Assembly (NCBI GenBank): GCA_947632595.1
Contig: CANRPY010000004.1
Span: 775-64,774 of the forward strand
Length of the DNA stretch: 64,000 nt
DNA from: an uncultured Bacilli bacterium
Lineage (GTDB): Bacteria; Bacillota_I; Bacilli_A; RF39; UBA660
Reading direction: 5' to 3'
Shown: positions 10,271-45,254 of the stretch, one piece after another
Numbering within the stretch: position 1 is the stretch's first letter
Layout: each line of letters begins with the position of its first letter
The notes under the pieces: generated by a model
The model's database searches: none
What the model saw: only the letters and a program-made list of their open reading frames with translations
What the model was told of the DNA's origin: nothing
Program-made: the position numbers and the translations under genes

Positions 10271-10274
10271 AGTC

Positions 10275-12244: not shown

Positions 12245-12276
12245 TTGCTTCCTCCTCCTTTTTCTTAATGAAATCG

Positions 12277-12305
12277 ATTATAGTCACTTGCCTAATTCTT
12301 ATCAA
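12277..12305 (-). promoter_or_regulatory. sigma-A type promoter for the adhesin-sortase operon
   Basis: On the minus strand: TTGATA - 17 nt - TATAAT. The start codon lies ~30 nt downstream, preceded by AGGAGGAGG. Confidence 0.6.
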
Positions 12306-12439
12306 ATTGTCCTTTTTGTATTTTCTGTTCTTCTTTTTCTTTCTTTTTTCTTTTTTCCTTCTTTCTTTTCCTATTTTTCAATGGGATTTCTTTTAAAAAT
12401 AAAAGTTTCCTATGTTATAATATTTTTTGAGGTGATACG

Positions 12440-14053
12440 ATGACAGATATTGAAATTTCTAGAAATAGTCATAAACTTCCTATCGTTGATGTTGCGAAAA
12501 AGATGGGAATTAAGAAAGATGATTTAGAGTTATATGGAAATTATAAAGCAAAGATTAAAAGAGTTAGTAAACGAAAAAAACAAGGGAAATTAATCCTTGT
12601 TACAGCTATTAGTCCAACTCCTATGGGAGAAGGGAAAACTACGGTTAGTATTGGTTTAGGAGATGCTCTTCACCAAATGGGTAAAAAAATTGTTATTGCC
12701 TTACGTGAACCATCTATGGGGCCTGTTTTTGGTATGAAAGGTGGCGCTACTGGAGGAGGATATTCTCAAGTTGTTCCAATGGAAGATATTAATCTTCATT
12801 TTACGGGAGATTTTCATGCGATTACTTCTGCCAATAATTTAATTAGTGCAGCTATTGATAATCATATTTATTTTGGGAATGCTTTGGATATTCAAAAAGT
12901 CTTATTTAAAAGATGTTTGGATGTTAATGATCGTGCATTAAGAGATGTTGATTTAGGCAGTAGAAGAGATTCTTTTACGATTACTTCTGCTAGTGAAGTT
13001 ATGGCTCTATTTTGTCTTGCGACTTCTTTGGATGATTTAAGAGTAAAACTTGGAAATATTATTGTAGGGGTTAATAGTCGTGGGGAATATGTTTATGTGA
13101 GAGATCTTAAGATTGAGGGTAGTTTAGTTGCTCTATTAAAAGATGCTTTTATGCCTAATCTTGTACAAACTCTAGAAAATACACCAACGATTATTCATGG
13201 TGGACCTTTTGCCAATATTGCTCACGGATGCAATAGTTTAATGGCTACCAAGACGGCTTTGAGTTATGCTGATTATGTTGTTACGGAAGCGGGGTTTGGA
13301 GCTGATTTAGGAGCAGAAAAGTTCTTAGACATTAAGTGCCGACTAGGGGGATTAAAACCAAATGCTGTTGTTTTGGTTGCTACCATTAAAGCTTTAAAAT
13401 ATCATGGTGGTGTTCCTAAGGATCAAGTGTTTGAAAAGAATCAAGAGGCTTTGAAGAAAGGATTTGCTAATCTTGATAAGCATTATGAAAATTTAAAAAG
13501 ATATGGTATCCCTGTTGTTGTTTGTCTTAATCAATTCCATACAGATACTGAGGAAGAAATTGATTTATTACGAAAACATTGTCTTGAAAAGGAATATTTA
13601 TTTACCGTATCTACTGCTTATGTAGATGGAGGAAGGGGAGCTATTGATTTAGCTAATACAATTCTTTCTGTTCCAAAGGGAAAATTTAAGGTTCTTTATA
13701 AATTAGATAGTTCTATTGAAAGCAAGGTAAGAAAGATTTGTAAGGAAATCTATGGTGCAGGTAAGGTACATTTTAGTCCTCTTGCGAAGGAAAAAATCCG
13801 TGATATCGTAAAAAACAATCTATCTAATCTTCCTATTTGTGTTGCGAAAACTCAGTATTCATTCTCTGATGATAAAAATAAAGTAGGAGTTCCTAAAGAT
13901 TTTGAGGTTACTGTCCGAGATGTTAATTTATATCATGGAGCTGGATTTATTACGGTTCTTTTGGGTGATATTATGACAATGCCTGGGCTTTCTCGTAAAC
14001 CTAATTATGAACAGATTGATGTTGTGGATGGAGAAATTGTAAATTTAAGTTAA
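12440..14053 (+). CDS. fhs: formate--tetrahydrofolate ligase
   Basis: Full-length match to the FTHFS pattern, including the nucleotide-binding block SPTPMGEGKTT and the end ...MPGLSRKPN. Confidence 0.95.
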   Translation: MTDIEISRNSHKLPIVDVAKKMGIKKDDLELYGNYKAKIKRVSKRKKQGKLILVTAISPTPMGEGKTTVSIGLGDALHQMGKKIVIALREPSMGPVFGMKGGATGGGYSQVVPMEDINLHFTGDFHAITSANNLISAAIDNHIYFGNALDIQKVLFKRCLDVNDRALRDVDLGSRRDSFTITSASEVMALFCLATSLDDLRVKLGNIIVGVNSRGEYVYVRDLKIEGSLVALLKDAFMPNLVQTLENTPTIIHGGPFANIAHGCNSLMATKTALSYADYVVTEAGFGADLGAEKFLDIKCRLGGLKPNAVVLVATIKALKYHGGVPKDQVFEKNQEALKKGFANLDKHYENLKRYGIPVVVCLNQFHTDTEEEIDLLRKHCLEKEYLFTVSTAYVDGGRGAIDLANTILSVPKGKFKVLYKLDSSIESKVRKICKEIYGAGKVHFSPLAKEKIRDIVKNNLSNLPICVAKTQYSFSDDKNKVGVPKDFEVTVRDVNLYHGAGFITVLLGDIMTMPGLSRKPNYEQIDVVDGEIVNLS

Positions 14054-14085
14054 AAAAAGTCCTAGTTTTGAACTAGGATTTTTTA
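14052..14085. terminator. bidirectional rho-independent terminator
   Basis: Hairpin TCCTAGTT-TTG-AACTAGGA flanked by an A-run and a T-run, between convergent genes. Confidence 0.75.
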
Positions 14086-14784
14086 TTCACATTTATTGGT
14101 TACAGGATTTAATGTCGTACCAGATGGGCAAGCAACGGCTGTTGTATTGGTTTCTACTGGTTCCATTATAATAAAGTCTCCGTAATAGGTTACATCATTA
14201 TAAATAATACTATATTTATATCTACCAGGTATTTTTTGATGAGCGATGACTTCTCTTAAATCTAATATCATATTATTATAGACTTCATCTGAAATTTCTT
14301 CATTGATGTAGTCTCTAATATTTCTAGAAATGCTTCCTGTTGTAGGCATTCTTTTTTCTTTTAAGGTAATTGTTATTTTTGGTAATTCTTTTGCTTTAAC
14401 AATAATCTTTCCTTCATAGACTTTTTTCTTATATTTAATTTTATAAGGATATGTTCCTGGTTGATTGACATTTACTTTTGATGTATCAAGACCTTCTGCT
14501 AATTCCTTTAACATTTCTTCTGTAATTTGATCTGGGTTTTCTAGGTAATCTTTAATATTTGTACTGATAGGAGTTCCTTCTTCTATGGTTACTTCTTTTA
14601 AGAGTACTTCATTTTTCTTTAATTGAATTTGTGAAATTTGTTCTGCCTGTACATCGACGTTATAGACTTTTTTCACTACGGTCTTTTTACTTTGACTCAT
14701 AATTGTTCCACTTGTGATAAAAATGACTCCCCAAGCTGCTATAACAATGGATAGTATGACATATTCTTTGCTATTCAATTTCAT
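14083..14784 (-). CDS. membrane-anchored extracytoplasmic protein with two tandem ~70-aa modules and a C-terminal Cys loop, unknown function
   Basis: It has an N-terminal TM (YVILSIVIAAWGVIFITSG). An internal duplication is visible (…ISTNIKDYLENPDQITEEM…GTYPYKIKYKKKVYEGKIIV versus …ISRNIRDYINEEISDEV…GRYKYSIIYNDVTYYGDFII). The tail is CPSGTTLNPVTNKCE. Confidence 0.5.
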   Translation of the reverse strand: MKLNSKEYVILSIVIAAWGVIFITSGTIMSQSKKTVVKKVYNVDVQAEQISQIQLKKNEVLLKEVTIEEGTPISTNIKDYLENPDQITEEMLKELAEGLDTSKVNVNQPGTYPYKIKYKKKVYEGKIIVKAKELPKITITLKEKRMPTTGSISRNIRDYINEEISDEVYNNMILDLREVIAHQKIPGRYKYSIIYNDVTYYGDFIIMEPVETNTTAVACPSGTTLNPVTNKCE

Positions 14785-14918
14785 AGTCCCACTCCTATTC
14801 TAATTCTATTATAGAAGATTCTTTCTTTATAAGATACATTATTTGACATATTTTTTATTTGTATGACACTTATTTGACATGCTGATTTACTGTTTGTGGA
14901 CTATGAATTTTGTATTTT

Positions 14919-15158
14919 TTATCGAAATAATAGGATATCTATTAGAATACTAAAGGGAATTAGGAGGATAAATTTTATTTTTCTTGTTTTATGATGGAAA
15001 AAAATCATTCCTAGTAAGGTTCCGATTCCTCCTCCTAAAAAAGATAATACAAGGAATACAATTTCTGGAATTCTACTTCTTTTTTTGATTGCTTGATATT
15101 TATCATATCCCATCATTAGAAACAGAATACTATTCGTTACGATTAAATATACTAACAT
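14919..15158 (-). CDS. DUF1294-family small membrane protein
   Basis: The N-terminal motif GYDKYQAIKKRSRIPE is followed by two TMs, which is typical of DUF1294. Confidence 0.7.
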   Translation of the reverse strand: MLVYLIVTNSILFLMMGYDKYQAIKKRSRIPEIVFLVLSFLGGGIGTLLGMIFFHHKTRKIKFILLIPFSILIDILLFR

Positions 15159-16078
15159 TTTGCTCCTTGATAGGTATTTCTTCTTACCATTTCTTTATCA
15201 ATATCATTTAATACACAGAATTTTTTTACTAACCATTTTGGTTCTATTAATTCTTCTTTTTTAGGATCTCCTGTTATTCTGTGAATTACAATTTCTGGTC
15301 TTAAGTATTCTAATTGATCTACTACAATATCAATGTATTCTTCTTTTGTTAGTACTTTAAATTTTTCTTTTTTCCATAATTTTTCCATAGGAGTATCTTT
15401 TAAAATACTTAGCATGTGTATTTTTATTCCTTGAATATCTAATCTATTTAGGTATTTTACGGTGTTTATCATATCTTCTTTGGTTTCGTAGGGTAGGCCA
15501 TTGATTATGTGGACTATGACGTCTATTTTTCTTTTTCTTAATTTTGTTACCATGTTTTCAAAGCATTCTAATGTATGACAACGATTGATTAGGATTGAGG
15601 TTTCTTCTTTCGTTGTTTGTAATCCTAATTCTATGGTTAAATTGGTTCTTTTGTTTAATTCTTCTAAGTAGTCTAGGCAATCTTCTGTAATTGCATCTGG
15701 TCTTGTTGCAATATTGATTCCTACTAAATTTTCTTCTTCTAGGATGGGTTCATATACTTTTTTTAATTCCTCTACTGGTGCATAGGTATTGGTTCTTGCT
15801 TGGAAGTATCCAATATACTTGGCGTTAGGCCACTTTTTTAACATGTTGTTTTTTACTTCTTCAAATTGTTTTTTGATATCATCTTCTTTGTTTCCTGCAA
15901 ACTCTCCACTACCACTTTTAGAACAATATAGACATCCTCCTACACCAACGGTTCCATCGATATTTGGACAGGAAAAACCAGCATTTAAACTTACCTTAAA
16001 TACTTTCCCATGATATTTCTTTTTATATTCATAATCTAGGGTATGATATCTTTTATTGGTATTTGAATATTGAAACAT
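15152..16078 (-). CDS. TIGR01212-type radical SAM protein
   Basis: The Cys cluster is FSCPNIDGTVGVGGCLYC, and the length and C-terminal region match the YtqA/TIGR01212 family. Confidence 0.85.
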   Translation of the reverse strand: MFQYSNTNKRYHTLDYEYKKKYHGKVFKVSLNAGFSCPNIDGTVGVGGCLYCSKSGSGEFAGNKEDDIKKQFEEVKNNMLKKWPNAKYIGYFQARTNTYAPVEELKKVYEPILEEENLVGINIATRPDAITEDCLDYLEELNKRTNLTIELGLQTTKEETSILINRCHTLECFENMVTKLRKRKIDVIVHIINGLPYETKEDMINTVKYLNRLDIQGIKIHMLSILKDTPMEKLWKKEKFKVLTKEEYIDIVVDQLEYLRPEIVIHRITGDPKKEELIEPKWLVKKFCVLNDIDKEMVRRNTYQGAKC

Positions 16079-16158
16079 AGGAACCTCCTTGTCAAATCTT
16101 ACTGTATTCTAACATAAAAAGTAGTATTTTACAATGAATTGTGGTATTATTATGCTAG

Positions 16159-17298
16159 GTGGTATGCTTGAGAAAGGTAAAGAGTGTTCATATTAAGCCA
16201 GGATTTATTCGAATCATAAAAGTTGTTGGCTGTATTCTTTGTGTGCTTCTTGGCATATTCATCTTTTATCGTTATCAAATTTCTACTTTAAAGAAGATTG
16301 GGTATAGTGAGATTGCGAGTAAGAGAATTCTTTTTTCTCGTAATAAAGAAAAGGTACTTGGTATTGGAGAAAATAAAACCGTAAATGCTGCTTTTGAGAG
16401 TGATTCTTTCCAAGAAAAAAATCTTGATCATTATGCGAAAATTACGTATGTAGAGCAGAAACATTTGATTTCTAATATTAATAAATTACTAAAAATTGGT
16501 TATAGTAATCATGATATTAATATTATTTTGAAACATGGAAATGATGAGGCAGTTAGTCAGTTTGCTACTAGAGAAAAGGTTTCTTATTTGGAAGAGTTTT
16601 TTTCTCTTGATTATGCAAAACTAGAAAATTATGATCGGTATGTGCAATATTCTGATGAGACTGGAGAAGATGAGATAGAGACTGTTATTGCGATTAATCT
16701 TGATTTGGATAAGACTCCTTATGAAGATGCAACTGTGGTTTCTTCCTTTTCTACTGATATGATTGTTAATAAATATCATTATTTAAAAGAAAATTTTGCT
16801 CCTTCTGATTTGACAACGATTCCAACGGAGTATGCATCAGAGAAGGGGATGCAATGTAGTAGACTTGCTTTGAATGCTTTTATACAAATGTATAAAGCTG
16901 CCGAAAAAGAAGGCTATGAACTCGTTATTAATTCTGCATATCGTAGTTATCAAGATCAAATTGATATTCAAAATACTTATTTAGAAGCCTATGGACAATC
17001 TTATGTAGATAAGTATGTTGCGAAACCAGGTTTTTCTGAACATCAGACTGGTCTTGCTTTTGATGTTGGTAGTCGTAATTCGCGTATTTTTGCAAATTCT
17101 AAGGAGTATACTTGGATGCTAGAGAATGCCTATCGGTATGGATTTATTTTAAGATTTGATGAACGATATGAAGATTTAACTGGATTTCGGAGTGAGCCTT
17201 GGCATTTTCGATATGTAGGGCGTGATATTGCCGAATATGTATATCAACATAATAATATGTCGTTAGAAGAATACTTTGTTATTTTTTTAGATAAGTAG
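16159..17298 (+). CDS. membrane-anchored M15B (VanY-type) D-alanyl-D-alanine carboxypeptidase
   Basis: It has an N-terminal TM. The Zn-peptidase blocks are SAYRSYQDQ, SEHQTGLAFD and EPWHFRYVG. The start codon is uncertain (GTG at 16159). Confidence 0.8.
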   Translation: MVCLRKVKSVHIKPGFIRIIKVVGCILCVLLGIFIFYRYQISTLKKIGYSEIASKRILFSRNKEKVLGIGENKTVNAAFESDSFQEKNLDHYAKITYVEQKHLISNINKLLKIGYSNHDINIILKHGNDEAVSQFATREKVSYLEEFFSLDYAKLENYDRYVQYSDETGEDEIETVIAINLDLDKTPYEDATVVSSFSTDMIVNKYHYLKENFAPSDLTTIPTEYASEKGMQCSRLALNAFIQMYKAAEKEGYELVINSAYRSYQDQIDIQNTYLEAYGQSYVDKYVAKPGFSEHQTGLAFDVGSRNSRIFANSKEYTWMLENAYRYGFILRFDERYEDLTGFRSEPWHFRYVGRDIAEYVYQHNNMSLEEYFVIFLDK

Positions 17299-17309
17299 AG
17301 GGTGATGAT

Positions 17310-18080
17310 ATGGTTTGTAAAAATTGTGGTGCTGATTTAAAGCCAAATACTAAATATTGTTTAGAGTGTGGTAGTTATATTGATGATGATGACGATGATG
17401 AAGGAAAAACTTCGGATTTAGGGGAATTATCTACTGATTATAAACCTGTTCGTTTAAGAGAAGAAGAGGAAGATTTTGCTCCTAAAAAGAAGAAGAGAAA
17501 GAAACTTAATTTAACGATGTCTGATTACCTTATCTATGGTGGACTTCTTACTGTTATGATTGTTTCTATCATTGTTATTATTGTTTCTTTGGTTACTGGT
17601 AAGAATCAAGAAGAAGAGATTCAGAATACGGCATCTCCAACCGTACAACAAGATAAGAATTATTCTATTGATGATTATGAGATTACTGTTCCTGGAAAAT
17701 ATATTTCTACGATTGAGGATAGTGTTTTATATGTTTCCGATGATGTGAATTATACATTTTCTTTTCAAAGTTCTCAGGAGGATTTTGATGCTTATTTAGC
17801 AAATCCTGAGAGTTTAAAAGAAAATTTAAAAGGACAATATAATGTGGTTTCTTCTACCGAGAAGACTGCTAGTGGTCGGGATTTTATTGTTAGTGAGATT
17901 AAAGTGGGAACGGAAAATAAGATTTTATATCTTACGAAGATTAATTCTAAACATACTGCAATGGGAATTATTGAAGTATTACCTAATGGTGATTGGGAGA
18001 TGGCATTATCAGTTATTGGAGAATTGGTAAATAGTATTAATTTTCAATCGACTGGGGATTCTTCAGAGCTCGTAAAATGA
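17310..18080 (+). CDS. zinc-ribbon membrane protein, unknown function
   Basis: The N-terminus is CKNCGADLKPNTKYCLECG, followed by an acidic run, one TM and a ~150-aa extracytoplasmic domain. Confidence 0.6.
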   Translation: MVCKNCGADLKPNTKYCLECGSYIDDDDDDEGKTSDLGELSTDYKPVRLREEEEDFAPKKKKRKKLNLTMSDYLIYGGLLTVMIVSIIVIIVSLVTGKNQEEEIQNTASPTVQQDKNYSIDDYEITVPGKYISTIEDSVLYVSDDVNYTFSFQSSQEDFDAYLANPESLKENLKGQYNVVSSTEKTASGRDFIVSEIKVGTENKILYLTKINSKHTAMGIIEVLPNGDWEMALSVIGELVNSINFQSTGDSSELVK

Positions 18081-20864: not shown

Positions 20865-21239
20865 ATGGAAGAAGTTGTTTTATTTTTGATGACGTTTCTT
20901 CTGTTATTTCTTATTTATGAGATTCTATTGATTCGGCCTTTAAAGAAGAAGGGGTATCAAAAATCGAATAAGAAAGAACTGATGGAAGTTCGTTATTTAA
21001 TTTCTAAATATCATTTGAATATGGATAAGATTTCTTATTCTCAATTATTACAACTGTGTGCAATTACTTCTTGTCTTAATATATCGATTACGGTTACTGT
21101 AGTTTCTTATGTTTCTTCCTTTTTATGGGAGATTGTAGTAGGATTTGTCGTAATCTTTCTTCTCATTTATGGAAGTTATTATTTGATTTATTTATTTTAT
21201 AAAAAGAAAGGGATGATTCGTGATGGAAAACATCAATAA
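20865..21239 (+). CDS. small membrane protein (3 predicted TM), first gene of the T-box/leuS operon
   Basis: It has a strong RBS (AGGAGG, 6 nt from the ATG) and hydrophobic segments (VVLFLMTFLLLFLIYEILLI, LLQLCAITSCLNISITVTVVSYV, VVGFVVIFLLIYGSYYLIYLF). Its end overlaps the leuS start. Confidence 0.55.
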   Translation: MEEVVLFLMTFLLLFLIYEILLIRPLKKKGYQKSNKKELMEVRYLISKYHLNMDKISYSQLLQLCAITSCLNISITVTVVSYVSSFLWEIVVGFVVIFLLIYGSYYLIYLFYKKKGMIRDGKHQ

Positions 21240-24036
21240 AGTAGAAAAAAAGTGGCAAGATTATTGGGATGAACATCAAACATTTCAATGTGGAAAGGAA
21301 AAGGGAAAACAACCTTATTATATTTTGGTAGAGTTTCCTTATCCAAGCGGTTCTGGACTTCATGTTGGGCATGTACGTAGTTATACGGCACAAGATGCGA
21401 TTGCTAGAATGATGAGATTACAAGGATATGATGTTTTGTATCCAATGGGATGGGATGCTTTTGGAGCACCTGCTGAACAGTATGCAATTAAGAATCATAT
21501 TCATCCAAAGGAAGCTGTTAAGGAAAATATTCAGACTTTTAAAGGACAAATGAAATCATTAGGTTTCTCTTTTGATTGGAGTCGTGAGTTTTCTACAACG
21601 GATCCTGAATATTATAAATGGACACAATGGCAATTTTTACAATTTTATAAACATGGTATGGCTTATAAAGATAAGATTCCTGTCAATTGGTGTCCTACTT
21701 GTAAGAGTGTATTGTCTAATGAAGATGCGGCTGGCGGAGTTTGTGAAAGATGTGGAAGTGTTGTTGAACAAAGAGAAAAGAGTCAATGGATGCTTCGTAT
21801 GAGTGATTATGCAGAAGATTTACTTACCGGTCTTTCGGATACGAATTTTGCGGATCGTGTCAAATTAGGTCAAATTAACTGGATTGGAAAATCTGTTGGA
21901 GCTCATGTTACTTTCCAAATTGATGGACATGATAAGAATTTTACAGTATTTACGACTCGTTGTGATACGTTGTTTGGAGCAACCTATTGTGTACTTGCTC
22001 CAGAACATCAATATGTATTAGAGATTACGACTCCAGAGCATATGGATGAAGTGAAGGCTTACATCCAAGAATGTGCTAAGAAAAATGAGATGGAGAGAAC
22101 AGAACTTAACAAGGATAAGACAGGTGTCTTTACAGGAGCCTATGCGATTAATCCTGTCAATGGTGATAAAATTCCTATTTATATTTCTGATTATGTTCTT
22201 GCAAGTTATGGAACAGGTGCGATTATGGCTGTTCCTGCTCATGATGATCGTGATTATGAATTTGCGAAGAAATTTCATATTCCTATCATTCAAGTTCTAG
22301 AAGAAGAGACAGGTACTCCACATGAAAATGAGAAGGAGAAACAATCTATTGTTGCAGTTGTTCATGATCCTAAAAAAGATCAATATTTGACTATTAATTG
22401 GAAAGATAAAGGTGGTCGTCTTTTTGTTGGAGGTACTCGTAAGAACCAAGAAGATGCTGTTGCTTGTGCTAAACGTGAAATTCAAGAAGAGACAGGATAT
22501 ACGGATATTGAACTTGTATGTGAGGATTTTACGATTCGTCATCATTATTATGCTTATAACAAAGATCAATATTTTGCTATTGAAGCTACGCCTTTGCTTT
22601 TTGAACTTAAGAGTGATAAAAAGGTTTCTCAAAAACTTGATCCTGATGAAGATTTTGAAGTAGAATGGGTTGATCGTTCTACGATTGAAAAAGAAGTTAA
22701 GGATGAACTTCATAAAAAGTCTTTTGAATATGTTTTAAATCCTGGTGCTATGACAGGGGATGGAACTCATGTAAATTCAGAATTCTTAAATGGTCTACAT
22801 AAAGAGGATGCTATCAACACTATGATTGGTTGGTTAGAAGATCATGAGTGTGGAAAACAACAAGTCAATTATAAAATGAGAGATTGGATTTTCTCTCGTC
22901 AAAGATTCTGGGGAGAGCCTATTCCTATGATTCATTGTCCTAAATGTGGATGGGTTCCTATGAAGGAAGAGGATTTACCATTACTTCTTCCTGATGTTGC
23001 GGAATATGAACCAACAGAAGATGGAGAAAGTCCTCTTGCAAATATTGAAGATTGGGTTAATTGTAAGTGTCCTAAATGTGGAGGAGATGCTAAAAGAGAG
23101 ACGGATACTATGCCTAACTGGGCTGGTTCTTCTTGGTATTTCTTACGTTTTATGGATCCTCATAATACTAAAGAATTTGCATCTATGGATGCAATGAAAT
23201 ATTGGAATCGTGTTGATTGGTACAATGGTGGAATGGAACATACAGCAAGACACTTATTGTATGCACGTTTCTGGGTTCAATTCTTGTATAATATTGGATT
23301 GGTTCCTCATAAAGAAATGATTTGGACTCGTGTTAGTCATGGTATGGTGCTTGGTTCTGACAATCAAAAAATGAGTAAATCAAAGGGTAATGTGATTAAT
23401 CCGGATGATATTGTGAAAGAATATGGAGCAGATACTTTACGTACTTATGAAATGTTTATGGGAGATTATCAAATGGATGCTCCATGGAGTACCGATTCTC
23501 TTAGAGGATGTAAGAGGTTCTTGGATAAAGTGGAAAGACTTAAAGATAAGATTAATGATCAAGAAGGATACAGTGAAAAACTAGAGCCTATTCAAAATAA
23601 AACAATTAAGAAAATTGAATATGATATGATGCATATGGGTTATAATACGGTTATTTCTTCTTTGATGATTTTAGCAAATGCTTATGATGATATGGAATCT
23701 ATTACAAAAGAAGATTATCATTTGTTCTTAACCCTTCTTAATCCAATTGCTCCTCATATTACCGAAGAGTTAAATGAACAAATTGGATATTCTCCTATTT
23801 GTGAGGGAGAGTGGCCTATTTATGATGAGGAGAAAACGGTTGAGAATACCAAAGAAATTGCGGTACAGGTTAATGGCAAAGTACGTGCTACGATAGAAAT
23901 CTCTATTGATGATGATGAAGATATGATTCGTGAGAAGGCACTAAGTTGTCTTAATGTTATGAAACATATTGAAGGACATGAAGTCGTAAAAGTTATCGTT
24001 ATCAAAGGTAAAATTGTTAATATTGTTATTCGATAG
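21223..24036 (+). CDS. leuS: leucyl-tRNA synthetase with an inserted Nudix domain
   Basis: Canonical LeuRS blocks are present: HVGH (HIGH), the CP1 editing motifs TTRCDTLFGATY and GTGAIMAVPAHDDRDYEFA, VNYKMRDWIFSRQRFWGEPIP, and KMSKS. An extra ~147 aa (nt 22300-22740) contains the Nudix box GTRKNQEDAVACAKREIQEETGY. Confidence 0.95.
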   Translation: MENINKVEKKWQDYWDEHQTFQCGKEKGKQPYYILVEFPYPSGSGLHVGHVRSYTAQDAIARMMRLQGYDVLYPMGWDAFGAPAEQYAIKNHIHPKEAVKENIQTFKGQMKSLGFSFDWSREFSTTDPEYYKWTQWQFLQFYKHGMAYKDKIPVNWCPTCKSVLSNEDAAGGVCERCGSVVEQREKSQWMLRMSDYAEDLLTGLSDTNFADRVKLGQINWIGKSVGAHVTFQIDGHDKNFTVFTTRCDTLFGATYCVLAPEHQYVLEITTPEHMDEVKAYIQECAKKNEMERTELNKDKTGVFTGAYAINPVNGDKIPIYISDYVLASYGTGAIMAVPAHDDRDYEFAKKFHIPIIQVLEEETGTPHENEKEKQSIVAVVHDPKKDQYLTINWKDKGGRLFVGGTRKNQEDAVACAKREIQEETGYTDIELVCEDFTIRHHYYAYNKDQYFAIEATPLLFELKSDKKVSQKLDPDEDFEVEWVDRSTIEKEVKDELHKKSFEYVLNPGAMTGDGTHVNSEFLNGLHKEDAINTMIGWLEDHECGKQQVNYKMRDWIFSRQRFWGEPIPMIHCPKCGWVPMKEEDLPLLLPDVAEYEPTEDGESPLANIEDWVNCKCPKCGGDAKRETDTMPNWAGSSWYFLRFMDPHNTKEFASMDAMKYWNRVDWYNGGMEHTARHLLYARFWVQFLYNIGLVPHKEMIWTRVSHGMVLGSDNQKMSKSKGNVINPDDIVKEYGADTLRTYEMFMGDYQMDAPWSTDSLRGCKRFLDKVERLKDKINDQEGYSEKLEPIQNKTIKKIEYDMMHMGYNTVISSLMILANAYDDMESITKEDYHLFLTLLNPIAPHITEELNEQIGYSPICEGEWPIYDEEKTVENTKEIAVQVNGKVRATIEISIDDDEDMIREKALSCLNVMKHIEGHEVVKVIVIKGKIVNIVIR

Positions 24037-25544: not shown

Positions 25545-27209
25545 ATGGAGGAGTATATGAAGAAAGATGTCACTATGAAAAAGTCCACTTTCGTTAAGGG
25601 TGCTTTTATTACTACTATTGGTATAGTTCTTACTAAGATTTTGGGCATTTTATATGTAATTCCTTTTCATTCTATTATTGGAGAAGAGGGAGGTGCCTTA
25701 TATGGATATGCTTATACGATCTATATCTTTTTCTTGTCTCTTTCTTCTGCAGGAATTCCTCTTGCGATTAGTAAACTAGTATCGGAATATCAAACTTTGG
25801 GATATTCCAAAGCGAAAAGGAGAGTTTTCGTTCTTGGAAAAAGAATTGCTCTTCTCTTTGGACTTATTTGTTTCTTGTTTTTAATTTTGTTTGCTCCTAT
25901 TTTGGCTAAGTGGATCTTAGGAGGCGTTGTTGGAGGAAACCGAGTAGAGGATGTTACTTTTGTAATTCGTGTTATCTCTTCTGCTATTTTAGTAGGACCA
26001 GTTCTAAGTGTTTATCGTGGATATTTTGAGGGACATCGTTTTATGAGTCCGCCTTCTATTTCTCAAGTGTTGGAGCAATTGCTTCGTGTTTTTATCATTC
26101 TTTTTGGTAGTTATTTTTCTTTGAAATTTTTCAAAGTCTCTTTAGCAAGTGTTGTTGGAGTTGCCTTATTTGGGGCTACTGCGGGAGCACTGATTGCCTA
26201 TTTTTACTTATTAGATAAGTATTTTAAAAATCGTCGTAAATTTCAGGAAAAAGTAAGAGATGTAAATGAGCCTATTGTGAGTGACCGGGTCATTCTTCAC
26301 AAAATATTTTTGTATGCTATTCCTTTTATTATGATTGATGTTTTTCAGTCTCTTTATCATTATGTGGACATGGTCAGTGTTGTCAAAGGACTTGTGAATT
26401 ATGCGCAATACTCAGCAGTAGATGCGGAAACTGTTTATAGTATTTTATCTACTTGGGCACAGAAATTTAATATGATTATTGCGGCTATTTCAACAGGAAT
26501 TATTGTTAGTTTGATTCCTAATCTTACAGAGAGTATTGTCAAAAAACAACAAGATGAAATTACTCACAAAGTAAATCTTTCTTTAAGTATGTTACTTTAT
26601 TTTATTCTTCCGATTTCTTTTGGAATTTGTTTTTTAGCAAAACCTATTTGGATTGTTTTTTATGGAGAGAGTTCTTATGGACCTAGTATTTTAAGTTACT
26701 ATGTTTTTGTTGGACTTATGGTTTCTTTATTTACAATGGTTATTAGTGTTTTACAAACGCTTAAAGATTATCGTAATGTATTTTGGTGTTTATTGATTGG
26801 ATTTGTTCTTAAAATTTTATTTAATTATAGTCTTCTTCGTACGTTCTTATCGATTGGTTTTCCACCTTATTATGGGTTTATTACTGCAACCATTCTTGGA
26901 TACTTAGCTTCTTTCTTTGTTTGTATGTTTATTTTAAGGAGAAAGTATCATATTTCTTTTGAAGTTTTTTTAAAAAACTTTGTTGATATTTTATGTGGGT
27001 CTTTCTTGATGCTTTTTGTCCTTGGAATCGTTCATTTTCTGATACCTTTTTCTTCGACATGTCGAATGGTTTGTTTCTTCCTTGTTCTTTTCTATACGGT
27101 ACTTGGTGCTTTTGTTTATTTTGTTTATGCTTATCGAGCTAAACTTACTAAGACTATTTTTGGAGATCGCTTCTTTAAGAGTTTTTCTAAAATCTTTTTT
27201 CATAAATAA
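25545..27209 (+). CDS. MOP-superfamily polysaccharide/lipid II flippase (MurJ/SpoVB/YtgP-like)
   Basis: It is ~550 aa with ~14 predicted TM helices, and the N-terminal block KGAFITTIGIVLTKILGILYVIPF is typical of the family. Confidence 0.8.
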   Translation: MEEYMKKDVTMKKSTFVKGAFITTIGIVLTKILGILYVIPFHSIIGEEGGALYGYAYTIYIFFLSLSSAGIPLAISKLVSEYQTLGYSKAKRRVFVLGKRIALLFGLICFLFLILFAPILAKWILGGVVGGNRVEDVTFVIRVISSAILVGPVLSVYRGYFEGHRFMSPPSISQVLEQLLRVFIILFGSYFSLKFFKVSLASVVGVALFGATAGALIAYFYLLDKYFKNRRKFQEKVRDVNEPIVSDRVILHKIFLYAIPFIMIDVFQSLYHYVDMVSVVKGLVNYAQYSAVDAETVYSILSTWAQKFNMIIAAISTGIIVSLIPNLTESIVKKQQDEITHKVNLSLSMLLYFILPISFGICFLAKPIWIVFYGESSYGPSILSYYVFVGLMVSLFTMVISVLQTLKDYRNVFWCLLIGFVLKILFNYSLLRTFLSIGFPPYYGFITATILGYLASFFVCMFILRRKYHISFEVFLKNFVDILCGSFLMLFVLGIVHFLIPFSSTCRMVCFFLVLFYTVLGAFVYFVYAYRAKLTKTIFGDRFFKSFSKIFFHK

Positions 27210-27321
27210 TTGTCAAGAAAATATAAAAAGATATGAATTTTATTTGTTATTATGGATAGAGAATGTTAAAATAAGTTATATAGGATAGATATCAAGTCTA
27301 AAAATTTTAGGAGGTATTTCT

Positions 27322-28650
27322 ATGGCAGTTTTTAAGTTAGATACGGATAGGGTTTCTTCTGTTAGTTCATCTTTACAGTCTATTGCTTCTCAAATTCGTA
27401 ATATTGCAAGTTCTGTAAGTGGGTATGATACAAGCTGTGATGAATTTGATTTTTCCTCTCCCAAATCAGTGATTGCTTCTAATATAGAGGCTTGTGCTAC
27501 GAAGGTTTCTAATACCTCTACTTATTTAGAGAGAGTTGCTTCTCGTCATTCTGCTCTTCAAAATAGTTTGAAATTTGGTGTTTCGGGAAGTACTGACTCT
27601 GATGGTCATGGAATCGGTACTAGTACAAGTGGAGGGGCTGGTTCTCGTTCTGCTGGTCGTAGTGGCGGTGGATACTCTGGAGGGTATGCTTCTTCTTACT
27701 CTGGTGGAGGAGGCGGTGGATACTCAACTTATTCTGGTCCAACAAAATCTGCTCCTGTTGATATTGCTATTCCTAGTAATGGTATTCAACATGGTACTGC
27801 TCAAACAGGTGGCCTTTCTGAAGTTGGAAAAACTCTATTTGAGAGTAAAGCTCTTGCTTATAATACGGCAGGATATGCAACCATTGGTGGAATGTTCTTA
27901 ATTGCTTGTAGTAGTCAATATGGTAAAGTTGGAGATGAGTTAACTTTCACATTAGATGATGGCCAGACTTTCCGTTGTATTATTGCGAAAGTGGATGATA
28001 GTACCAATGGAAAGATTCATTTCTTTGTAAATGATGAATGGAAAGCTAATAATCCAGATAATTTCCAAGAAGATATTTGTGATCATATTGTCAAAGCTCA
28101 AAATCTTGGTCAAAATACTACTTATACTTGTGGGGCTACGATTAGTGGCGCTCTTGAGTGGGCTGAGACGATTGCGAATGATGATCGTTATGGATATTCT
28201 CAATCTACTCGTTGGGGAAATCCAAATTACGACTGTTCTTCCTTTGTTATTTCTGCTTATGAAGCTGCTGGTATTCCTGTTAAGGAAGCTGGAGCCTCTT
28301 ATACAGGTAACATGATTGATGCTTTTGTTCAATGTGGATTTGAATGGATTCCAGGAAACCCTAATGTTAATACGTTAAAACCTGGTGATATTGTCTTAGA
28401 TGTGGATGCTCATACCGAAATGTACTTTGGTAATGGTAAATTGGTTGGAGCTCATAGTAACAAAGATGGTCGAGATGGAGACTCTAGTGGTAATGAAATT
28501 AATATTTCTAACTATTATAGTCACCCTTGGGATGGAGTTTTACGTTATGTAGGTAGTGGTCAAAACGATGCGAAAGCCGTTGCTGCCCCAAATGCACCTA
28601 AGGTTTCCTCTCAAAAAAAATCAACGGATGTTGAAGTTTTACAAGTATAA
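27322..28650 (+). CDS. signal-peptide-less peptidoglycan hydrolase: helical N-terminal domain, G/S/Y-rich linker, 3D/DPBB-like domain and NlpC/P60-like amidase domain
   Basis: It has a strong RBS (AGGAGG). There is no N-terminal hydrophobic segment. The low-complexity stretch is GGAGSRSAGRSGGGYSGGYASSYSGGGGGGYSTYSG. The Cys/His blocks are NYDCSSFVISAYEAAGIPV and DAHTEMYFGNGKLVGAH. Confidence 0.7.
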   Translation: MAVFKLDTDRVSSVSSSLQSIASQIRNIASSVSGYDTSCDEFDFSSPKSVIASNIEACATKVSNTSTYLERVASRHSALQNSLKFGVSGSTDSDGHGIGTSTSGGAGSRSAGRSGGGYSGGYASSYSGGGGGGYSTYSGPTKSAPVDIAIPSNGIQHGTAQTGGLSEVGKTLFESKALAYNTAGYATIGGMFLIACSSQYGKVGDELTFTLDDGQTFRCIIAKVDDSTNGKIHFFVNDEWKANNPDNFQEDICDHIVKAQNLGQNTTYTCGATISGALEWAETIANDDRYGYSQSTRWGNPNYDCSSFVISAYEAAGIPVKEAGASYTGNMIDAFVQCGFEWIPGNPNVNTLKPGDIVLDVDAHTEMYFGNGKLVGAHSNKDGRDGDSSGNEINISNYYSHPWDGVLRYVGSGQNDAKAVAAPNAPKVSSQKKSTDVEVLQV

Positions 28651-28742
28651 TTTTATCAATATAGTGTAAAGTGTTGCCCTATTGCTTTTTCTAATAGGAA
28701 AATTAATGTTATAATGAAAATAAAGAATGGAGGTTAAAGAAT

Positions 28743-29042
28743 ATGGCAAATGGTTTAATCGTAGAAGCTGGTTCTATGAAAGATGATGGAGAAAAGACAA
28801 TTGGTAGTGCAGAAGATTTCTTAAATGAAATTAATATCTTAAAAAACAATGTTGAGGCATTAATGAGAATTTGGAGTGGTCCTGCTGCTGCTGCTTTTCA
28901 AGCATCTTTTCTTGAACAAGCAGATAATTTAAATGAATTCCAACAAAGATTAAATGATCGTGGAGAAGATATTGTTAACTCTGCAGGAATTTTAAATCGT
29001 AATGAAGAAGATTTAGCTGCTGCTGGATCTCACTTATTCTAA
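28743..29042 (+). CDS. WXG100-family (EsxA-like) protein
   Basis: It is 99 aa and predicted helical, with a central W-S-G (codons 28872-28880) in ...ALMRIWSGPAAAAFQ.... Confidence 0.8.
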   Translation: MANGLIVEAGSMKDDGEKTIGSAEDFLNEINILKNNVEALMRIWSGPAAAAFQASFLEQADNLNEFQQRLNDRGEDIVNSAGILNRNEEDLAAAGSHLF

Positions 29043-29059
29043 TAAAAGGAGGTTTTAGA

Positions 29060-29356
29060 ATGCAAGAATTTAAAGAAGAGAACTATGATGAAGCAATTGC
29101 TTTAGCTGATGAAGTTGCTGCAAGTGCTACTCGTATTCATAATGTTTTTGAAGATATTGATAATGTTACGAATCTATTACATGGAGGGCATTGGGAAAGT
29201 ACCGGATCTGAAGATGTAAGTGCTGACTATGCTCGTACTGTTAAGAGTAGATTTGAACCATTCTATGAAAATGTTATGACTATGAAAAAACATATTTATG
29301 AAGTAACTGGTCGTAACCAAGAAGCAGATACTCAAGCTGCTGCAAATATTCAATAA
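29060..29356 (+). CDS. WXG100-like small helical protein (divergent)
   Basis: It is 98 aa and lies directly after the EsxA-like gene. The central HWESTGSE approximates the W-x-G turn. Confidence 0.5.
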   Translation: MQEFKEENYDEAIALADEVAASATRIHNVFEDIDNVTNLLHGGHWESTGSEDVSADYARTVKSRFEPFYENVMTMKKHIYEVTGRNQEADTQAAANIQ

Positions 29357-29367
29357 AAAATGAGAAG

Positions 29368-29401
29368 AATAAAGTGAACTTTGAGGTTCACTTTATTTTT
29401 T
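29368..29401. terminator. bidirectional terminator between the esx-like operon and the femAB-like gene
   Basis: A 12-bp hairpin AATAAAGTGAAC-loop-GTTCACTTTATT is flanked by A- and T-runs. Confidence 0.85.
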
Positions 29402-30715
29402 CTCATTTTCTTTTTGTAATTCTTCTTCTAAATTTTTTTTGCTTTTTTTGCGTATTATCTTTCGATAGATTGGAACTAATTTTGTGAAGACAAAGTAGAA
29501 TAGTGGATCTACTATGTAATCCCATTCGCCAATAAATTCGATATAGTCTCCACCAAACTTCTTTTTAAATTCATGTAGCCCTAATCTTGGATTGTTTTTT
29601 GATAAGTCTCCTATCGTACCAAATTGGTCGTAGATCTTAATCTTTTTGTTTTTACAATACTTAATGTGTTCATAATAGGTTTTATAATTTACATAGGTCT
29701 CACTTAATATATTGTGATTTCCTGCATATAAAACCCAAGCTTTATCTCCATATTCTATAATCATATGAGCACTTAAGGTAATTTCATTTCCATATTCTTT
29801 TCTTGCTTCTTTATATTTTTCAATTTCTGCTAAAATATTTTCCTTTTGTTTTGTTAGTTCTGTTAATTTTGCTTTTGCGCTTTTACTTAAGTTATCTATT
29901 GGTAAGATGGATATTTGATTGTTGATATCCTTAAGTGTTTTTTCTATCGCATTTATGGTTTTCGTAATATTAATTTTGCCCATGAAAAGGGTTGCTTTTG
30001 AAGATTTATTTCCATTAAAGATTTCATATAGTGTTTCATAATAATCTTCATTATAAGAAATAAAGTCTTTTCTAGATTCTGTTAGGGTCATTAAATGATA
30101 GAATTCTTTGATATCACTCTTTTTTCCTATTGTTACTTCGGTATCTAATTTTTCTGCTTTGGCAATTCTTTGTTTGGTTGTTTTGGAAAAGTGATTTTCT
30201 ATTTCTTCCATGGATTGTGTTAAGTCAATACGGAAGGTGTATCTTGGTTGCATGGTTTCAAAGTTTTTGGTATATCCTTGGTGCTTGAAACCACAAGACT
30301 TTAATGTTTCAAATATTTTATCGTAGTCCTCTTCTATTTTTTCTTCATTTTGATAATTGATGGATTTTCTAATAATATCAGGATCTATTTTTACAAAGAT
30401 TGCTTTTTTACTTTTTGCAAATTCTACTACTTTTTTGGTCATTTCTCGTACTAGTTCTTTTTTCTTAAAATCGATTACAAAACCACGAGGAGCATACAGA
30501 TAACATCTATTCATTGGTAGTTTTTTTTCCAATAATAGAGTTGAGGCTACAACTTCTTCTTTTTCATTTACTAAACCTAAATAATAGGGAGTTACATTCT
30601 TCTTTATTTTTGAAAATTCTCCCCAAGATAGAGATTGTAAAAAGTGAGATTTATATTTATTTGTTCTTACAAATTCATCAAATTGTTCTTTTTCTAAATT
30701 CTTTAGTTTTAGCAT
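29393..30715 (-). CDS. FemAB/FemX-family peptidoglycan interpeptide-bridge aminoacyltransferase
   Basis: The N-terminal block is HFLQSLSWGEFSK. The ~440-aa length includes a central coiled-coil insertion, as in FemA/FemB. Confidence 0.85.
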   Translation of the reverse strand: MLKLKNLEKEQFDEFVRTNKYKSHFLQSLSWGEFSKIKKNVTPYYLGLVNEKEEVVASTLLLEKKLPMNRCYLYAPRGFVIDFKKKELVREMTKKVVEFAKSKKAIFVKIDPDIIRKSINYQNEEKIEEDYDKIFETLKSCGFKHQGYTKNFETMQPRYTFRIDLTQSMEEIENHFSKTTKQRIAKAEKLDTEVTIGKKSDIKEFYHLMTLTESRKDFISYNEDYYETLYEIFNGNKSSKATLFMGKINITKTINAIEKTLKDINNQISILPIDNLSKSAKAKLTELTKQKENILAEIEKYKEARKEYGNEITLSAHMIIEYGDKAWVLYAGNHNILSETYVNYKTYYEHIKYCKNKKIKIYDQFGTIGDLSKNNPRLGLHEFKKKFGGDYIEFIGEWDYIVDPLFYFVFTKLVPIYRKIIRKKSKKNLEEELQKENEKK

Positions 30716-32373: not shown

Positions 32374-33543
32374 ATGGGTATACTAGATAAAATCAAGAAT
32401 GCTCTTTTTGAAGTAGAGTATGTGGAAGTGGAAGAAAAACCTAAAAAAGAAAAAAAAGTAAAACAAAAAGAGCAAACTACGGAAAAAGAGGATAAACCGA
32501 TTGCGAAAAAGATTGTTCTTCCTGGTAAGATTGAAGAAAAGGTTGAGGAAATCAAAGAAGAAGAATTAAAAGATGAAGATTTTGAAGTTCGTCCAAAAGA
32601 CGAGAAAGTAAAGGAAGTCTTCCAAGATAACTTTAATGTTATGGGAGATGATTATCCTACTGCTCCAGTTCCTCCGGTTACAGAACCTGTTTATGAGGAA
32701 GTTCCTCCTGCAACCATTCCAACGGTACCACCTGAGACGACACCTGCCACACAACCAATTGCTCAGGATGGGGTATATACTAATAAAGATTATGTTCGTG
32801 AATATGATTCTTATAAAGAAAAAGTTTATAATACTTTACAAAATGAAATTCATGTAAAGAAACCTGAAAGTAGACCTTATGGTATGGATCTTTCTCATCG
32901 AGTAGCTATTAAAGAATATGGTGCGGAAAGTAGAGAAGAGAAAGGTACTTTTAAACCTAGTCCTATTATTTCTCCTATTTATGGTATTCTTGATAAAAAC
33001 TATAAAAAGGAAGATGTTGTTGCGAAGAAAGAAGTTCATCATCCTACCTATTATAGTAAAGCAAGTTTGAATGTAGATGATATTCGAAATAAAGCTTATG
33101 GAAGTAATAGTCAAGAAGAGTTTCAAGAAGAAAAGACTCATGAGATTGTATTAGAAGATGATGATGAAAACTTATTGGTTGATTTAAGTGATGAAAAGAA
33201 ACCAGAAGTAAAAGAAATTACTGTTGGAGATGCTATGGAGTATTTCCAAGATTTAGGTCTTGAATATAATGTGGATTATGTGGATGCGAGTGGTAAAACT
33301 CCTCCTAAGAAAAAGCCTGATGATTTAGAAGAAGATATTAAGGATACCATGAATGAATCTGTTGAAGAAGTTGTTGTACCAGAAACGGTTCCTGTACCTG
33401 TTCCAGCACCTGCAACAGAACCAGTTGTTGCTAAAGTAGAAAGTGCTCCTGTAGAAGAAAAACCAGCAGCAGAAGCTACTTTAGATGATGATGACAACTT
33501 ATTTGATTTAATTGATTCTATGTATCATGAAGAAGATAATTAG
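32374..33543 (+). CDS. acidic, Pro-rich protein with an N-terminal amphipathic helix, unknown function
   Basis: The N-terminus is MGILDKIKNALFEVEYVEVEE. Pro-rich tracts follow (PVPPVTEPVYEEVPPATIPTVPPETTPATQP). The C-terminus is DDDDNLFDLIDSMYHEEDN. Confidence 0.5.
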   Translation: MGILDKIKNALFEVEYVEVEEKPKKEKKVKQKEQTTEKEDKPIAKKIVLPGKIEEKVEEIKEEELKDEDFEVRPKDEKVKEVFQDNFNVMGDDYPTAPVPPVTEPVYEEVPPATIPTVPPETTPATQPIAQDGVYTNKDYVREYDSYKEKVYNTLQNEIHVKKPESRPYGMDLSHRVAIKEYGAESREEKGTFKPSPIISPIYGILDKNYKKEDVVAKKEVHHPTYYSKASLNVDDIRNKAYGSNSQEEFQEEKTHEIVLEDDDENLLVDLSDEKKPEVKEITVGDAMEYFQDLGLEYNVDYVDASGKTPPKKKPDDLEEDIKDTMNESVEEVVVPETVPVPVPAPATEPVVAKVESAPVEEKPAAEATLDDDDNLFDLIDSMYHEEDN

Positions 33544-45179: not shown

Positions 45180-45254
45180 AAGTAGCAAATGCTACTTTTT
45201 TTCTTTGTTATTTTATTGTATAATATTAATATATTTATAGAAAGAGGGAGATTT

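Follow-up and report, generated by a model that had tools for sequence, protein, structure and literature searches.

Three genes at positions 27322-29356 of a 64-kb stretch of DNA from an uncultured Bacilli bacterium (contig CANRPY010000004.1; the whole stretch of 64,000 nucleotides is called the window below) appear to form a single unit, in which the first gene encodes a 442-aa protein that is probably a peptidoglycan hydrolase exported by a type VII secretion system (T7SS), and the other two encode small proteins of 99 and 98 aa, one a WXG100 protein and one resembling that family. In the mechanism that we propose, an N-terminal WXG100-like hairpin of ~85 aa and a disordered Gly/Ser linker would replace the Sec signal or membrane anchor; the hairpin would pair with the 99-aa and 98-aa proteins encoded downstream, giving a helical bundle by analogy with the LXG toxins and their Lap partners, and this bundle would be recognised by the EssC-type T7SS ATPase of the lineage, encoded elsewhere in the genome. 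Once exported, the enzyme, whose catalytic domain is predicted to be of D,L-endopeptidase type, would cut peptidoglycan stem peptides outside the membrane, with the bond from gamma-D-Glu to the diamino acid as the expected site, while its double-psi beta-barrel (DPBB)-like domain would bind or cut glycan. As read from the sequence, the leader and the partner genes suggest an unusual export route for wall-degrading enzymes. A preliminary description of this DNA had proposed such a T7SS-dependent wall-degrading effector, and the proposal is supported here by the modelled fold of the leader, the WxG motif in the leaders of sister hydrolases, an EssC gene next to the cassette in one relative, further EssC genes in the lineage, and the occurrence of the same catalytic domain behind other N-termini in other bacteria.

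The hydrolase, its leader and the two small proteins

As the preliminary description had stated, the 442-aa protein carries neither a signal peptide nor a transmembrane (TM) segment, its maximum Kyte-Doolittle value over 19 residues being 1.17. An AlphaFold2 (AF2) model built on a 26-sequence alignment reached a mean predicted local distance difference test score (pLDDT) of 74, and its N-terminus, described earlier as helical over ~85 aa, was indeed modelled as two helices spanning residues 8-33 and 45-82 (pLDDT ~75-84). Conserved positions of this leader, which we designate type B, are F4, T8, the G34-Y35-D36 turn, K61, T65, H76 and Q80. In a Foldseek search with the model, the leader matched Staphylococcus aureus EsxA (2vrz_A; probability 1.0, TM-target 0.60), GBS1074 (3o9o_B; 0.71), 3gwk, 3gvm and 3zbh; besides one designed protein and one integrative model, EsxA/WXG100 proteins were the sole helical-hairpin class among the matches. 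The model thus suggests an antiparallel two-helix hairpin like that of EsxA, a fold so simple that it constitutes weak evidence of homology. The LXG profile (PF04740) matched neither the whole protein (E up to 1) nor residues 1-93 (E up to 10), and the leader is much shorter than the LXG domain (~200 aa), as had been noted. The profile check that the preliminary description had called for gave no above-threshold match of the N-terminus to the WXG100 or LXG family, and its modelled fold is EsxA-like; filing the leader under either family at the sequence level was dropped, since the matches were sub-threshold or of coiled-coil type. A profile search with the leader alone for more cargo types returned 20 short fragments only.

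The leader is followed by the linker, whose composition (21 Gly and 14 Ser in residues 86-141) is as extremely G/S/Y-rich as first described, and by a beta-rich domain for which a 3D/DPBB-like nature had been suggested. The fold part of that suggestion stood, since the Foldseek matches of this domain were double-psi beta-barrels (expansin 7wvr, the p97 N-domain and the designed DPBB 7dww), all of them weak (E ≥0.27). The family part did not, because there was no match to Pfam 3D (PF06725) or DPBB_1 and no sequence relative in the PDB; the only well-conserved Asp residues are that of a single 'VGD' motif and D213. The domain is homologous to one found in a hydrolase associated with a type IV secretion system (T4SS) in Gordonibacter, and it may bind or cleave glycan.

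The C-terminal alpha/beta domain (pLDDT mostly 75-92 in the AF2 model) matched the Pfam family ELLD (PF25309, 'endolysin-like domain') with 58.3 bits against a gathering score of 27, and Amidase_5 with 24.3 bits against a cutoff of 21, and fell just under the threshold of 23 for NLPC_P60 (22.4 bits). In an alignment with the Bacillus subtilis D,L-endopeptidase CwlO, Cys305 (DCSSFV) and His364 (HTEMY) fall on its catalytic Cys and His, and Foldseek also matched the domain to the structures of MepS and Cg1735. Of the 26 sequences in the family alignment, 24 keep Cys305, all 26 keep His364 and 25 keep His378, so the NlpC/P60-type Cys/His domain of the preliminary description was borne out. We found no paper on the Pfam ELLD family. 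One full-length member of the hydrolase family (P0012, 541 aa) has its catalytic Cys replaced, with 'SYDASSFV' in place of 'NYDCSSFV', and could be either a pseudo-enzyme or a variant that only binds.

The 99-aa protein, called WXGa below, had been described as a canonical WXG100 protein, and is better called borderline-canonical. It has the WSG motif (W44-S45-G46, at 28872-28880), the ~100-residue size and the WxG at the turn that define the family, and a low-confidence chimera model breaks its helices at residues 44-46. Its C-terminal '...EED.A.AG.HLF' is a candidate for a conserved exposed tail. Its score against Pfam WXG100 (PF06013) was 27.3 bits, exactly the gathering score, while its 31.7 bits against TIGR03930 lie under the cutoff of 44.85; the ortholog in locus L005 has an unmarked precomputed PF06013 match (loci fetched for comparison carry L numbers, and proteins P numbers). 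The 98-aa protein (WXGb) is divergent, as had been said: it scored 17.1 bits against the 27.3 of Pfam WXG100 and 24.0 bits (E 3e-5) against the 44.85 of TIGR03930, and has HWESTG at the predicted turn in place of WxG, for which reason we label it WXG100-like. Orthologs of WXGa occur in every cassette of the lineage, and those of WXGb always adjoin WXGa.

The features of the region are collected in Table 1. All three ORFs of the preliminary description were recovered at the same positions, intact and each with a ribosome-binding site, that of the hydrolase gene being an AGGAGG near 27309. The gap of 92 nt between the hydrolase gene and WXGa had been credited with its own extended -10 promoter; the element TGTTATAAT is present at ~28708-28716, but promoter-like sites are no commoner in the region than in shuffled sequence, at nine against 9.1 (the scan covered sigma-70-type motifs, other promoter types being outside the range of the tool). 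A terminator scan found no terminator in this gap.

Table 1. Positions of the three-gene unit, its domains and signals, and its two neighbours in the window
Feature	Position	Strand	Basis or remark
MurJ/SpoVB-family flippase gene (context)	25545..27209	+	Conserved upstream neighbour in most relatives
Promoter-like site 5' of the hydrolase gene, TTGTTA-17-TAAAAT with TG	27244..27272	+	Consensus match only
442-aa hydrolase gene	27322..28650	+	ORF list; Pfam ELLD match
Type B helical-hairpin leader, aa 1-85 (predicted)	27322..27576	+	Alignment, AF2, Foldseek
Disordered G/S/Y-rich linker, aa 86-141 (predicted)	27577..27744	+	pLDDT <50; G/S/Y/T/A = 86%
Beta-rich domain of DPBB-like fold, ~aa 145-265 (predicted)	27754..28116	+	pLDDT >90; weak Foldseek matches
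NlpC/P60-type (Pfam ELLD) cysteine endopeptidase domain, ~aa 270-410	28129..28551	+	PF25309; Cys305, His364, His378
Intergenic promoter-like elements, TTTACA-16-TATAGT and extended -10 TGTTATAAT	28638..28716	+	Sequence motifs only
99-aa WXG100 gene (WXGa)	28743..29042	+	ORF list; WSG at aa 44-46
98-aa WXG100-like gene (WXGb)	29060..29356	+	ORF list; HWESTG at predicted turn
Bidirectional intrinsic-terminator-like hairpin, 17-bp stem	29364..29401	.	Closes the unit and splits it from the convergent femAB
FemAB-family gene (context)	29393..30715	-	Conserved convergent downstream neighbour; 77-86% identity across relatives

The cassette in related genomes and its link to EssC

Searches with the hydrolase returned 329 homologs, the full-length ones 50-58% identical, from rumen and gut metagenome-assembled genomes (MAGs) labelled Bacilli, Bacillales, Mollicutes or Erysipelotrichaceae. 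The cassette is conserved within a single uncultured Bacilli lineage, in ~20 MAGs at species level, and in most of these genomes it stands in the syntenic order leucyl-tRNA synthetase (LeuRS), Fic, MurJ-like, cassette, convergent FemAB and TrmB. By housekeeping genes the nearest relatives of the window are L008, L009, L016, L001 and L003 (FemAB 85-86% and MurJ 70-73% identical). A cassette holds one to six hydrolases and then normally three small WXG100 genes, in the order WXGc, WXGa and WXGb. At least one type B hydrolase together with WXGa and WXGb was present in every species examined, and these three stay together even in the rearranged loci L010, L021 and L027; the cassette as a whole was found in at least four chromosomal contexts. 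Across relatives WXGa is 32-57% identical, compared to 77-86% for FemAB. WXGc (95 aa), which lies directly 3' of the type B hydrolase in nearly all relatives, is absent from the window at 28651-28742 (as compared with L001, L003, L005, L007 and L008), as is the type A-ELLD gene of the nearest relatives.

None of the hydrolases in these cassettes has a signal peptide; each begins with a helical leader, of which there are three types. The type A leader is ~130 aa long and has a true WxG ('GSWRGTSHDS'); it aligned with the small WXG100 proteins in hhalign (67%, E 5e-5) and gave weak WXG100 and PPE matches in Pfam, with one member (P0118) having a precomputed WXG100 match. The type B leader, that of the window, has an invariant G-Y-D at the turn, and the type C leader gave weak EspC and WXG100 matches. 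Leaders and catalytic domains are exchanged among these proteins. Two neighbouring proteins of L005 share an almost identical type A leader and differ at the C-terminus, which is ELLD in the first case and a glucosaminidase of glycoside hydrolase family 73 (GH73) in the second; type B leaders occur on DPBB, DPBB plus ELLD and C39-like domains, and type C leaders on GH73, lysozyme and C39-like domains. The cargo of the lineage ranges over NlpC/P60 (ELLD), GH73, phage-tail-type lysozyme, DPBB alone, a C39-like papain-fold peptidase and an alpha/beta-hydrolase esterase. The cassettes thus combine conserved N-terminal trafficking domains with variable C-terminal domains, in the manner of polymorphic toxins. 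No candidate immunity gene was found in 18 of the 19 loci, the window included, where every cassette ORF of at least 60 aa is either a leader-bearing hydrolase or a small WXG100 protein.

FemAB genes were seen beside both halves of the system. They are convergent to the cassette in most loci, with two tandem femAB genes in L005/L012, L010, L025 and L026, the duplication falling in several of the loci with large arsenals; in the L018 group (L018 5438-6679; L111, L114) a distant FemAB paralog, with 23% identity, precedes MurD, Eno and EssC, and in L015 and L019 FemAB is not within 10 kb of the cassette. This recurrent proximity could be coincidence, or could reflect a link to peptidoglycan cross-bridge chemistry or to self-protection.

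The link to type VII secretion comes from a local scan for FtsK-type proteins that covered the window and 84 fetched loci (85 sequences, 1.4 Mb) and found one giant ORF of this type, in L018 (CAMNUE010000007.1). The cassette of that locus consists of a type A-ELLD, a type C-GH73 and a type B-DPBB hydrolase followed by WXGc, WXGa and WXGb, and a 1,542-aa EssC (13438-18066) starts 96 nt after it, with FtsK_SpoIIIE matched at 163 bits in two stretches together with an FHA domain. On the 3' side of EssC, a 93-aa ORF overlaps its 3' end and is followed by six small helical proteins. An ORF of 84-93 aa is conserved beside EssC in 23 loci and sits in the esaB/yukD position; it gave no YukD match in Pfam, and from its position we infer that it is EsaB-like. 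We estimate the chance of a cassette landing beside EssC at ~0.5%, a post hoc figure that assumes four placements in a genome of ~1,500 genes.

EssC itself is widespread in the lineage, with 182 homologs at E <1e-10, some of which NCBI annotates as 'type VII secretion protein EssC [Bacilli bacterium]'. Elsewhere the module of EssC, small ORF and helical proteins stands in a locus of its own, after PurA, after HtpG, or after Eno and prolyl-tRNA synthetase (ProRS). It looks minimal, being made up of an FHA-containing EssC, the overlapping 84-93-aa ORF, five or six helical proteins ~100 aa long and a further one of ~155 aa, as seen in L018 (13438-20441) and in L085, L107, L111 and L114 (around 10001-17500). 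No match to the Pfam families EsaA, EssA or EssB was recorded within 10 kb on either side of the EssC loci of the lineage, and by its gene content the module may represent a further T7SS subtype beyond T7SSb-j. Downstream of one EssC locus of the lineage there are DUF4176 genes (L085 18939-19520; L086 18939-20268). Since DUF4176 is a chaperone family of T7SSb LXG toxins (PMC13492133), the same T7SS probably exports conventional toxins as well.

Outside the lineage the ELLD domain is found behind other N-termini. In Ruminococcus flavefaciens 007c (L033) both the GH73 and the ELLD proteins have Sec signal peptides; in Solobacterium (L045) a TM-anchored ELLD protein is encoded beside a VirB4-like gene; in Gordonibacter pamelaeae (L050) a TM-anchored protein with ELLD and a DPBB-like domain, in reversed order, follows TrbL/VirB6-like and VirB4/TraG-like genes; and in Anaerococcus tetradius (L036) a leaderless ELLD protein comes directly after small TM holin-like ORFs. 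One catalytic domain would thus have been adapted to four routes, namely Sec, a T4SS-linked membrane anchor, a phage holin and a T7SS-type leader. Because the N-terminus is the element that changes with the export route of the ELLD domain, this variation is the strongest indirect evidence for the hairpin as a secretion leader, and the pattern of sequences implies that the helical leader is the export determinant in this lineage.

Genomic surroundings of the cassette

The window is an ordinary piece of chromosome with housekeeping genes, among them those for an RNase R-like protein, GH31, Fic, TrmB, EzrA, SpoIVA, a class A penicillin-binding protein, and LeuRS and tyrosyl-tRNA synthetase under T-box control; RecU was called by eye from its N-terminal sequence. 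The preliminary description had asked whether phage genes or those of an integrative and conjugative element (ICE) flank the locus. No phage, integrase, VirB4, VirB6, coupling-protein or conjugation gene was found in the window, the neighbours are housekeeping genes throughout, and the locus is syntenic between species. Its statement that no T7SS core lies within the window also held, as there was no ORF longer than 938 aa and no match to the FtsK motor domain, and searches of the window proteins with the EssC, the EssC-adjacent small ORF and the accessory proteins of the lineage itself gave no match.

Several other genes of the window deserve mention. The LeuRS (21220-24036, +) has a NUDIX hydrolase domain (aa 376-498) inserted directly after its editing domain, with 37.1 bits against a gathering score of 21.1 and a visible Nudix box; the protein measures 938 aa in the window and 937 aa in L017, compared to 803-822 aa in most relatives, and by its sequence this appears to be an unusual architecture for an aminoacyl-tRNA synthetase. 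SpoIVA (48728-50200, -) is complete, with three domains, the top NCBIfam match of the flippase is SpoVB, and Cse60 is encoded in relatives (L003 8024-8203; L005 3994-4167), so that the lineage, to judge by these genes, is probably spore-forming despite the 'Mollicutes' label on some records. At 10275-12244 (-) the gene for a signal-peptide protein with thioester (TED) and SpaA-fold domains overlaps at its 3' end with a sortase gene, and the two look like a covalent-adhesin or pilin pair. Two acetate-kinase-like paralogs, recognised from their N-terminal motifs, lie 1 kb apart at 42995-44194 and 45189-46439 (+), with a membrane-protein gene between them. An acidic Pro/Glu/Lys-rich protein of 389-414 aa is encoded 3' of TrmB in the window (32374-33543, +), in L001 (15387-16631) and in L003 (16358-17596); its position in the synteny is kept, and it gave no Pfam match.

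Possible roles of the hydrolase and comparison with known systems

Export by a T7SS must be weighed against several observations that speak the other way. The cassette abuts EssC in one (L018) of ~20 species-level loci, and the two closest EssC relatives of that locus, which belong to the same genus and have flanking genes 84-97% identical, have no cassette there and instead ProRS genes between Eno and EssC. Within the window there is no EssC or other T7SS gene, and its cassette is the most reduced that was seen, with one hydrolase, WXGa and WXGb. As regards the leader, the two-helix hairpin is a simple fold; Pfam and NCBIfam gave no above-threshold match, Pfam T7SS_ESX_EspC scoring 15.4 bits (E 0.027); hhalign of the leader with the WXG100 proteins of the locus gave a probability of 15% (E 0.0018), with GYD aligned to the position of WxG; a profile search of the PDB returned coiled-coil noise only; and a single-chain pseudo-complex model of the leader with WXGa and WXGb was uninformative (mean pLDDT 45, predicted template modelling score 0.34). 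Searches for a hydrolase and an EssC in one genome gave the following. When JGI metagenomes were scanned with EssC P0191, the 695-kb contig with a syntenic cassette was not among the results; two annotated hydrolases (MBP5678782, MBP5678783) and four annotated EssC proteins were traced to different MAGs; and the assemblies that hold EssC P0144 and hydrolase P0050 are neighbours within a single study, a finding that is suggestive only.

If the hydrolase is exported by the T7SS, its target leans slightly to the wall of the producer itself, where it would serve local wall opening or act as an autolysin, because the cassettes lack immunity genes and the closest catalytic relatives outside the lineage are self-directed hydrolases that open the wall for conjugation. 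Further pointers in this direction are that every species has the core set of type B hydrolase, WXGa and WXGb, that the cassette usually stands near murJ, femAB and murD, and that EssH sets a precedent. The lack of immunity genes also argues against a classical toxin-immunity system. It is a serious, if lesser, possibility that the same route delivers antibacterial effectors against the walls of competitors, as a T7SS counterpart of the Tae, Tge and Tle arsenals of type VI secretion systems (T6SSs), with self-protection through the peptidoglycan chemistry of the producer, such as cross-bridges built by FemAB on a wall that is probably of the Lys type, and not through dedicated immunity proteins. 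Such a use would fit the several chromosomal contexts of the cassette, the variable number of its hydrolases, the shuffling of leaders and cargo, the inclusion of an esterase and a C39-like peptidase, the fast divergence of WXGa relative to FemAB, and the presence of FemAB beside the cassette in most loci and its duplication in several of those with large arsenals. Producers of lysostaphin and zoocin A protect themselves with the FemAB-like Lif and Zif. FemAB was not adopted as an immunity factor of the Lif/Zif type, since it is conserved as highly as a housekeeping gene and is not near the cassette in L015 and L019, and a type B hydrolase with both small proteins in every species suggests a core function. 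No immunity candidate was found in 18 of 19 loci, whereas the characterised antibacterial toxins of T7SSs all have adjacent immunity genes (PMC10765036, PMC13492133). More doubtful, though worth stating, is the broader notion that in this lineage the T7SS is a routine housekeeping exporter of the cell's own wall hydrolases, for which three EsxA-like leader families replace Sec signals, so that the enzymes would serve growth, cell separation or the cutting of a path for the T7SS and not warfare; this would explain both the missing immunity genes and the usual place of the cassette among murJ, femAB and murD.

The remaining alternatives dispense with export by a working T7SS. It is unlikely that the protein is a leaderless hydrolase that reaches the wall by lysis of the mother cell at the end of sporulation, or by general lysis, with the helical N-terminus and the WXG100 genes serving regulation or oligomerisation. 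Leaderless sporulation autolysins do exist, for example CwlC of B. subtilis, the sporulation genes described above are present, and the window has no T7SS gene; yet lysis leaves unexplained the EsxA-like leaders on six types of hydrolase, the constant two or three WXG100 genes and the one abutment with EssC, and the promoter-like motifs are of the sigma-70 type, which is a weak point since the scan was limited to that type. A shade less likely again is that the cassette is a relic in its source genome, the T7SS having been lost or the cassette being in decay. The most reduced form of the cassette, which lacks WXGc and the type A-ELLD gene of its nearest relatives, would agree with decay, but the three ORFs are intact with ribosome-binding sites and a terminator, the catalytic residues are in place, and a version with one hydrolase is also found in L007. 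It is highly improbable that the protein is an endolysin from a phage, or a conjugative element's wall hydrolase, that lies in the chromosome by chance. The catalytic domain does match phage lysin families, the DPBB plus ELLD pair belongs to T4SS-module wall hydrolases in Gordonibacter and Solobacterium, and ELLD follows holin-like ORFs in Anaerococcus; against this, the window holds housekeeping genes only, the locus is syntenic in ~15 species, the protein has no TM anchor, and the catalytic domain alone matches PHROG families, the leader, the DPBB domain and both small proteins giving no match. A phage or ICE origin of the locus was rejected on this gene context and is close to refuted. We therefore retain a T7SS substrate as the preferred reading of the 442-aa protein.

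To our knowledge, every characterised substrate of T7SSb is either a small WXG100 protein or an LXG-type toxin whose site of action is the inside of the target cell, membranes or lipid II. The closest parallel to the proposed arrangement is that of the LXG toxins with Lap1/Lap2 (TelA-D of Streptococcus intermedius), which likewise have an N-terminal helical targeting domain, a variable C-terminal enzyme and genes for small WXG100-like partners; TelC, like the proposed hydrolase, works on the outer side of the membrane, against the cell-wall pathway. They differ in that the leader here is ~85 aa compared to ~200 aa and has no LXG match in Pfam, the partners are encoded downstream and not upstream, the cargo consists of peptidoglycan hydrolases, and the cassette has neither an immunity gene nor a DUF4176 chaperone. 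Genes for T7SS substrates typically have one or two genes for small WXG100-related partners beside them (PMC11217815). In two reviews of T7SSb substrates no peptidoglycan hydrolase is listed, TelC being a lipid II phosphatase and EssH being Sec-dependent (PMC10765036, PMC13492133), and passage across the thick Gram-positive wall is acknowledged as an open question (PMC13492133). EssH of S. aureus is a T7SSb-associated CHAP hydrolase, encoded next to esxA, that is needed for secretion across the wall (PMC10765036, PMC13059805). It resembles the present protein as a dedicated wall hydrolase genetically tied to WXG100/T7SS genes, and differs in having a Sec signal and a CHAP domain where the window protein has an EsxA-like leader, no signal, and DPBB and NlpC/P60 (ELLD) domains.

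The wall hydrolases of conjugation systems (the CwlT, TcpG and PrgK class, and those of Gordonibacter and Solobacterium) share the homologous ELLD domain, in Gordonibacter also the DPBB domain, and the two-domain design directed at glycan and peptide; they are TM-anchored, stand beside VirB4- or VirB6-like genes and have the reversed domain order, unlike the WXG-type leader and WXG100 neighbours described here. In mycobacterial PE/PPE-enzyme fusions such as LipY (T7SSa, ESX-5), a ~100-aa hairpin of the EsxAB clan, sometimes with a Gly-rich linker, directs export by the T7SS. The likeness is a helical-hairpin N-terminus on a hydrolase, and the sister leaders of this lineage give weak PPE and EspC matches in Pfam; the fusions belong to another phylum and another T7SS type, and the present proteins have no PE/PPE membership by sequence and carry peptidoglycan-targeting cargo. 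Lysostaphin with Lif and zoocin A with Zif are also peptidoglycan peptidases encoded beside a FemAB-family gene, but these are Sec-secreted M23 peptidases with an accessory FemAB-like immunity gene, whereas FemAB here is highly conserved and its linkage inconstant. The T6SS effectors Tae, Tge and Tle form comparable arsenals of amidases or peptidases, glycosidases and esterases delivered by a specialised secretion system, and differ in the system itself, in their cognate immunity proteins and in their Gram-negative producers. Zhang et al. (2012) tied Tox-NlpC/P60 and Tox-Glucosaminidase only to T6SS, Photorhabdus virulence cassette (PVC) and TcdB trafficking, and not to WXG/LXG (PMC3482391). 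Taken against these systems, the cassette would extend a known principle, that of an EsxAB-type leader with helical partners, to a new class of cargo, with much shorter leaders and in a lineage-wide cassette that lacks immunity genes. If this is true, peptidoglycan hydrolases would be added to the cargo classes of the T7SS, very short leader families of use in mapping recognition by EssC would be defined, and a natural system would be at hand in which to ask if wall-opening enzymes are exported by the very T7SS that they serve.

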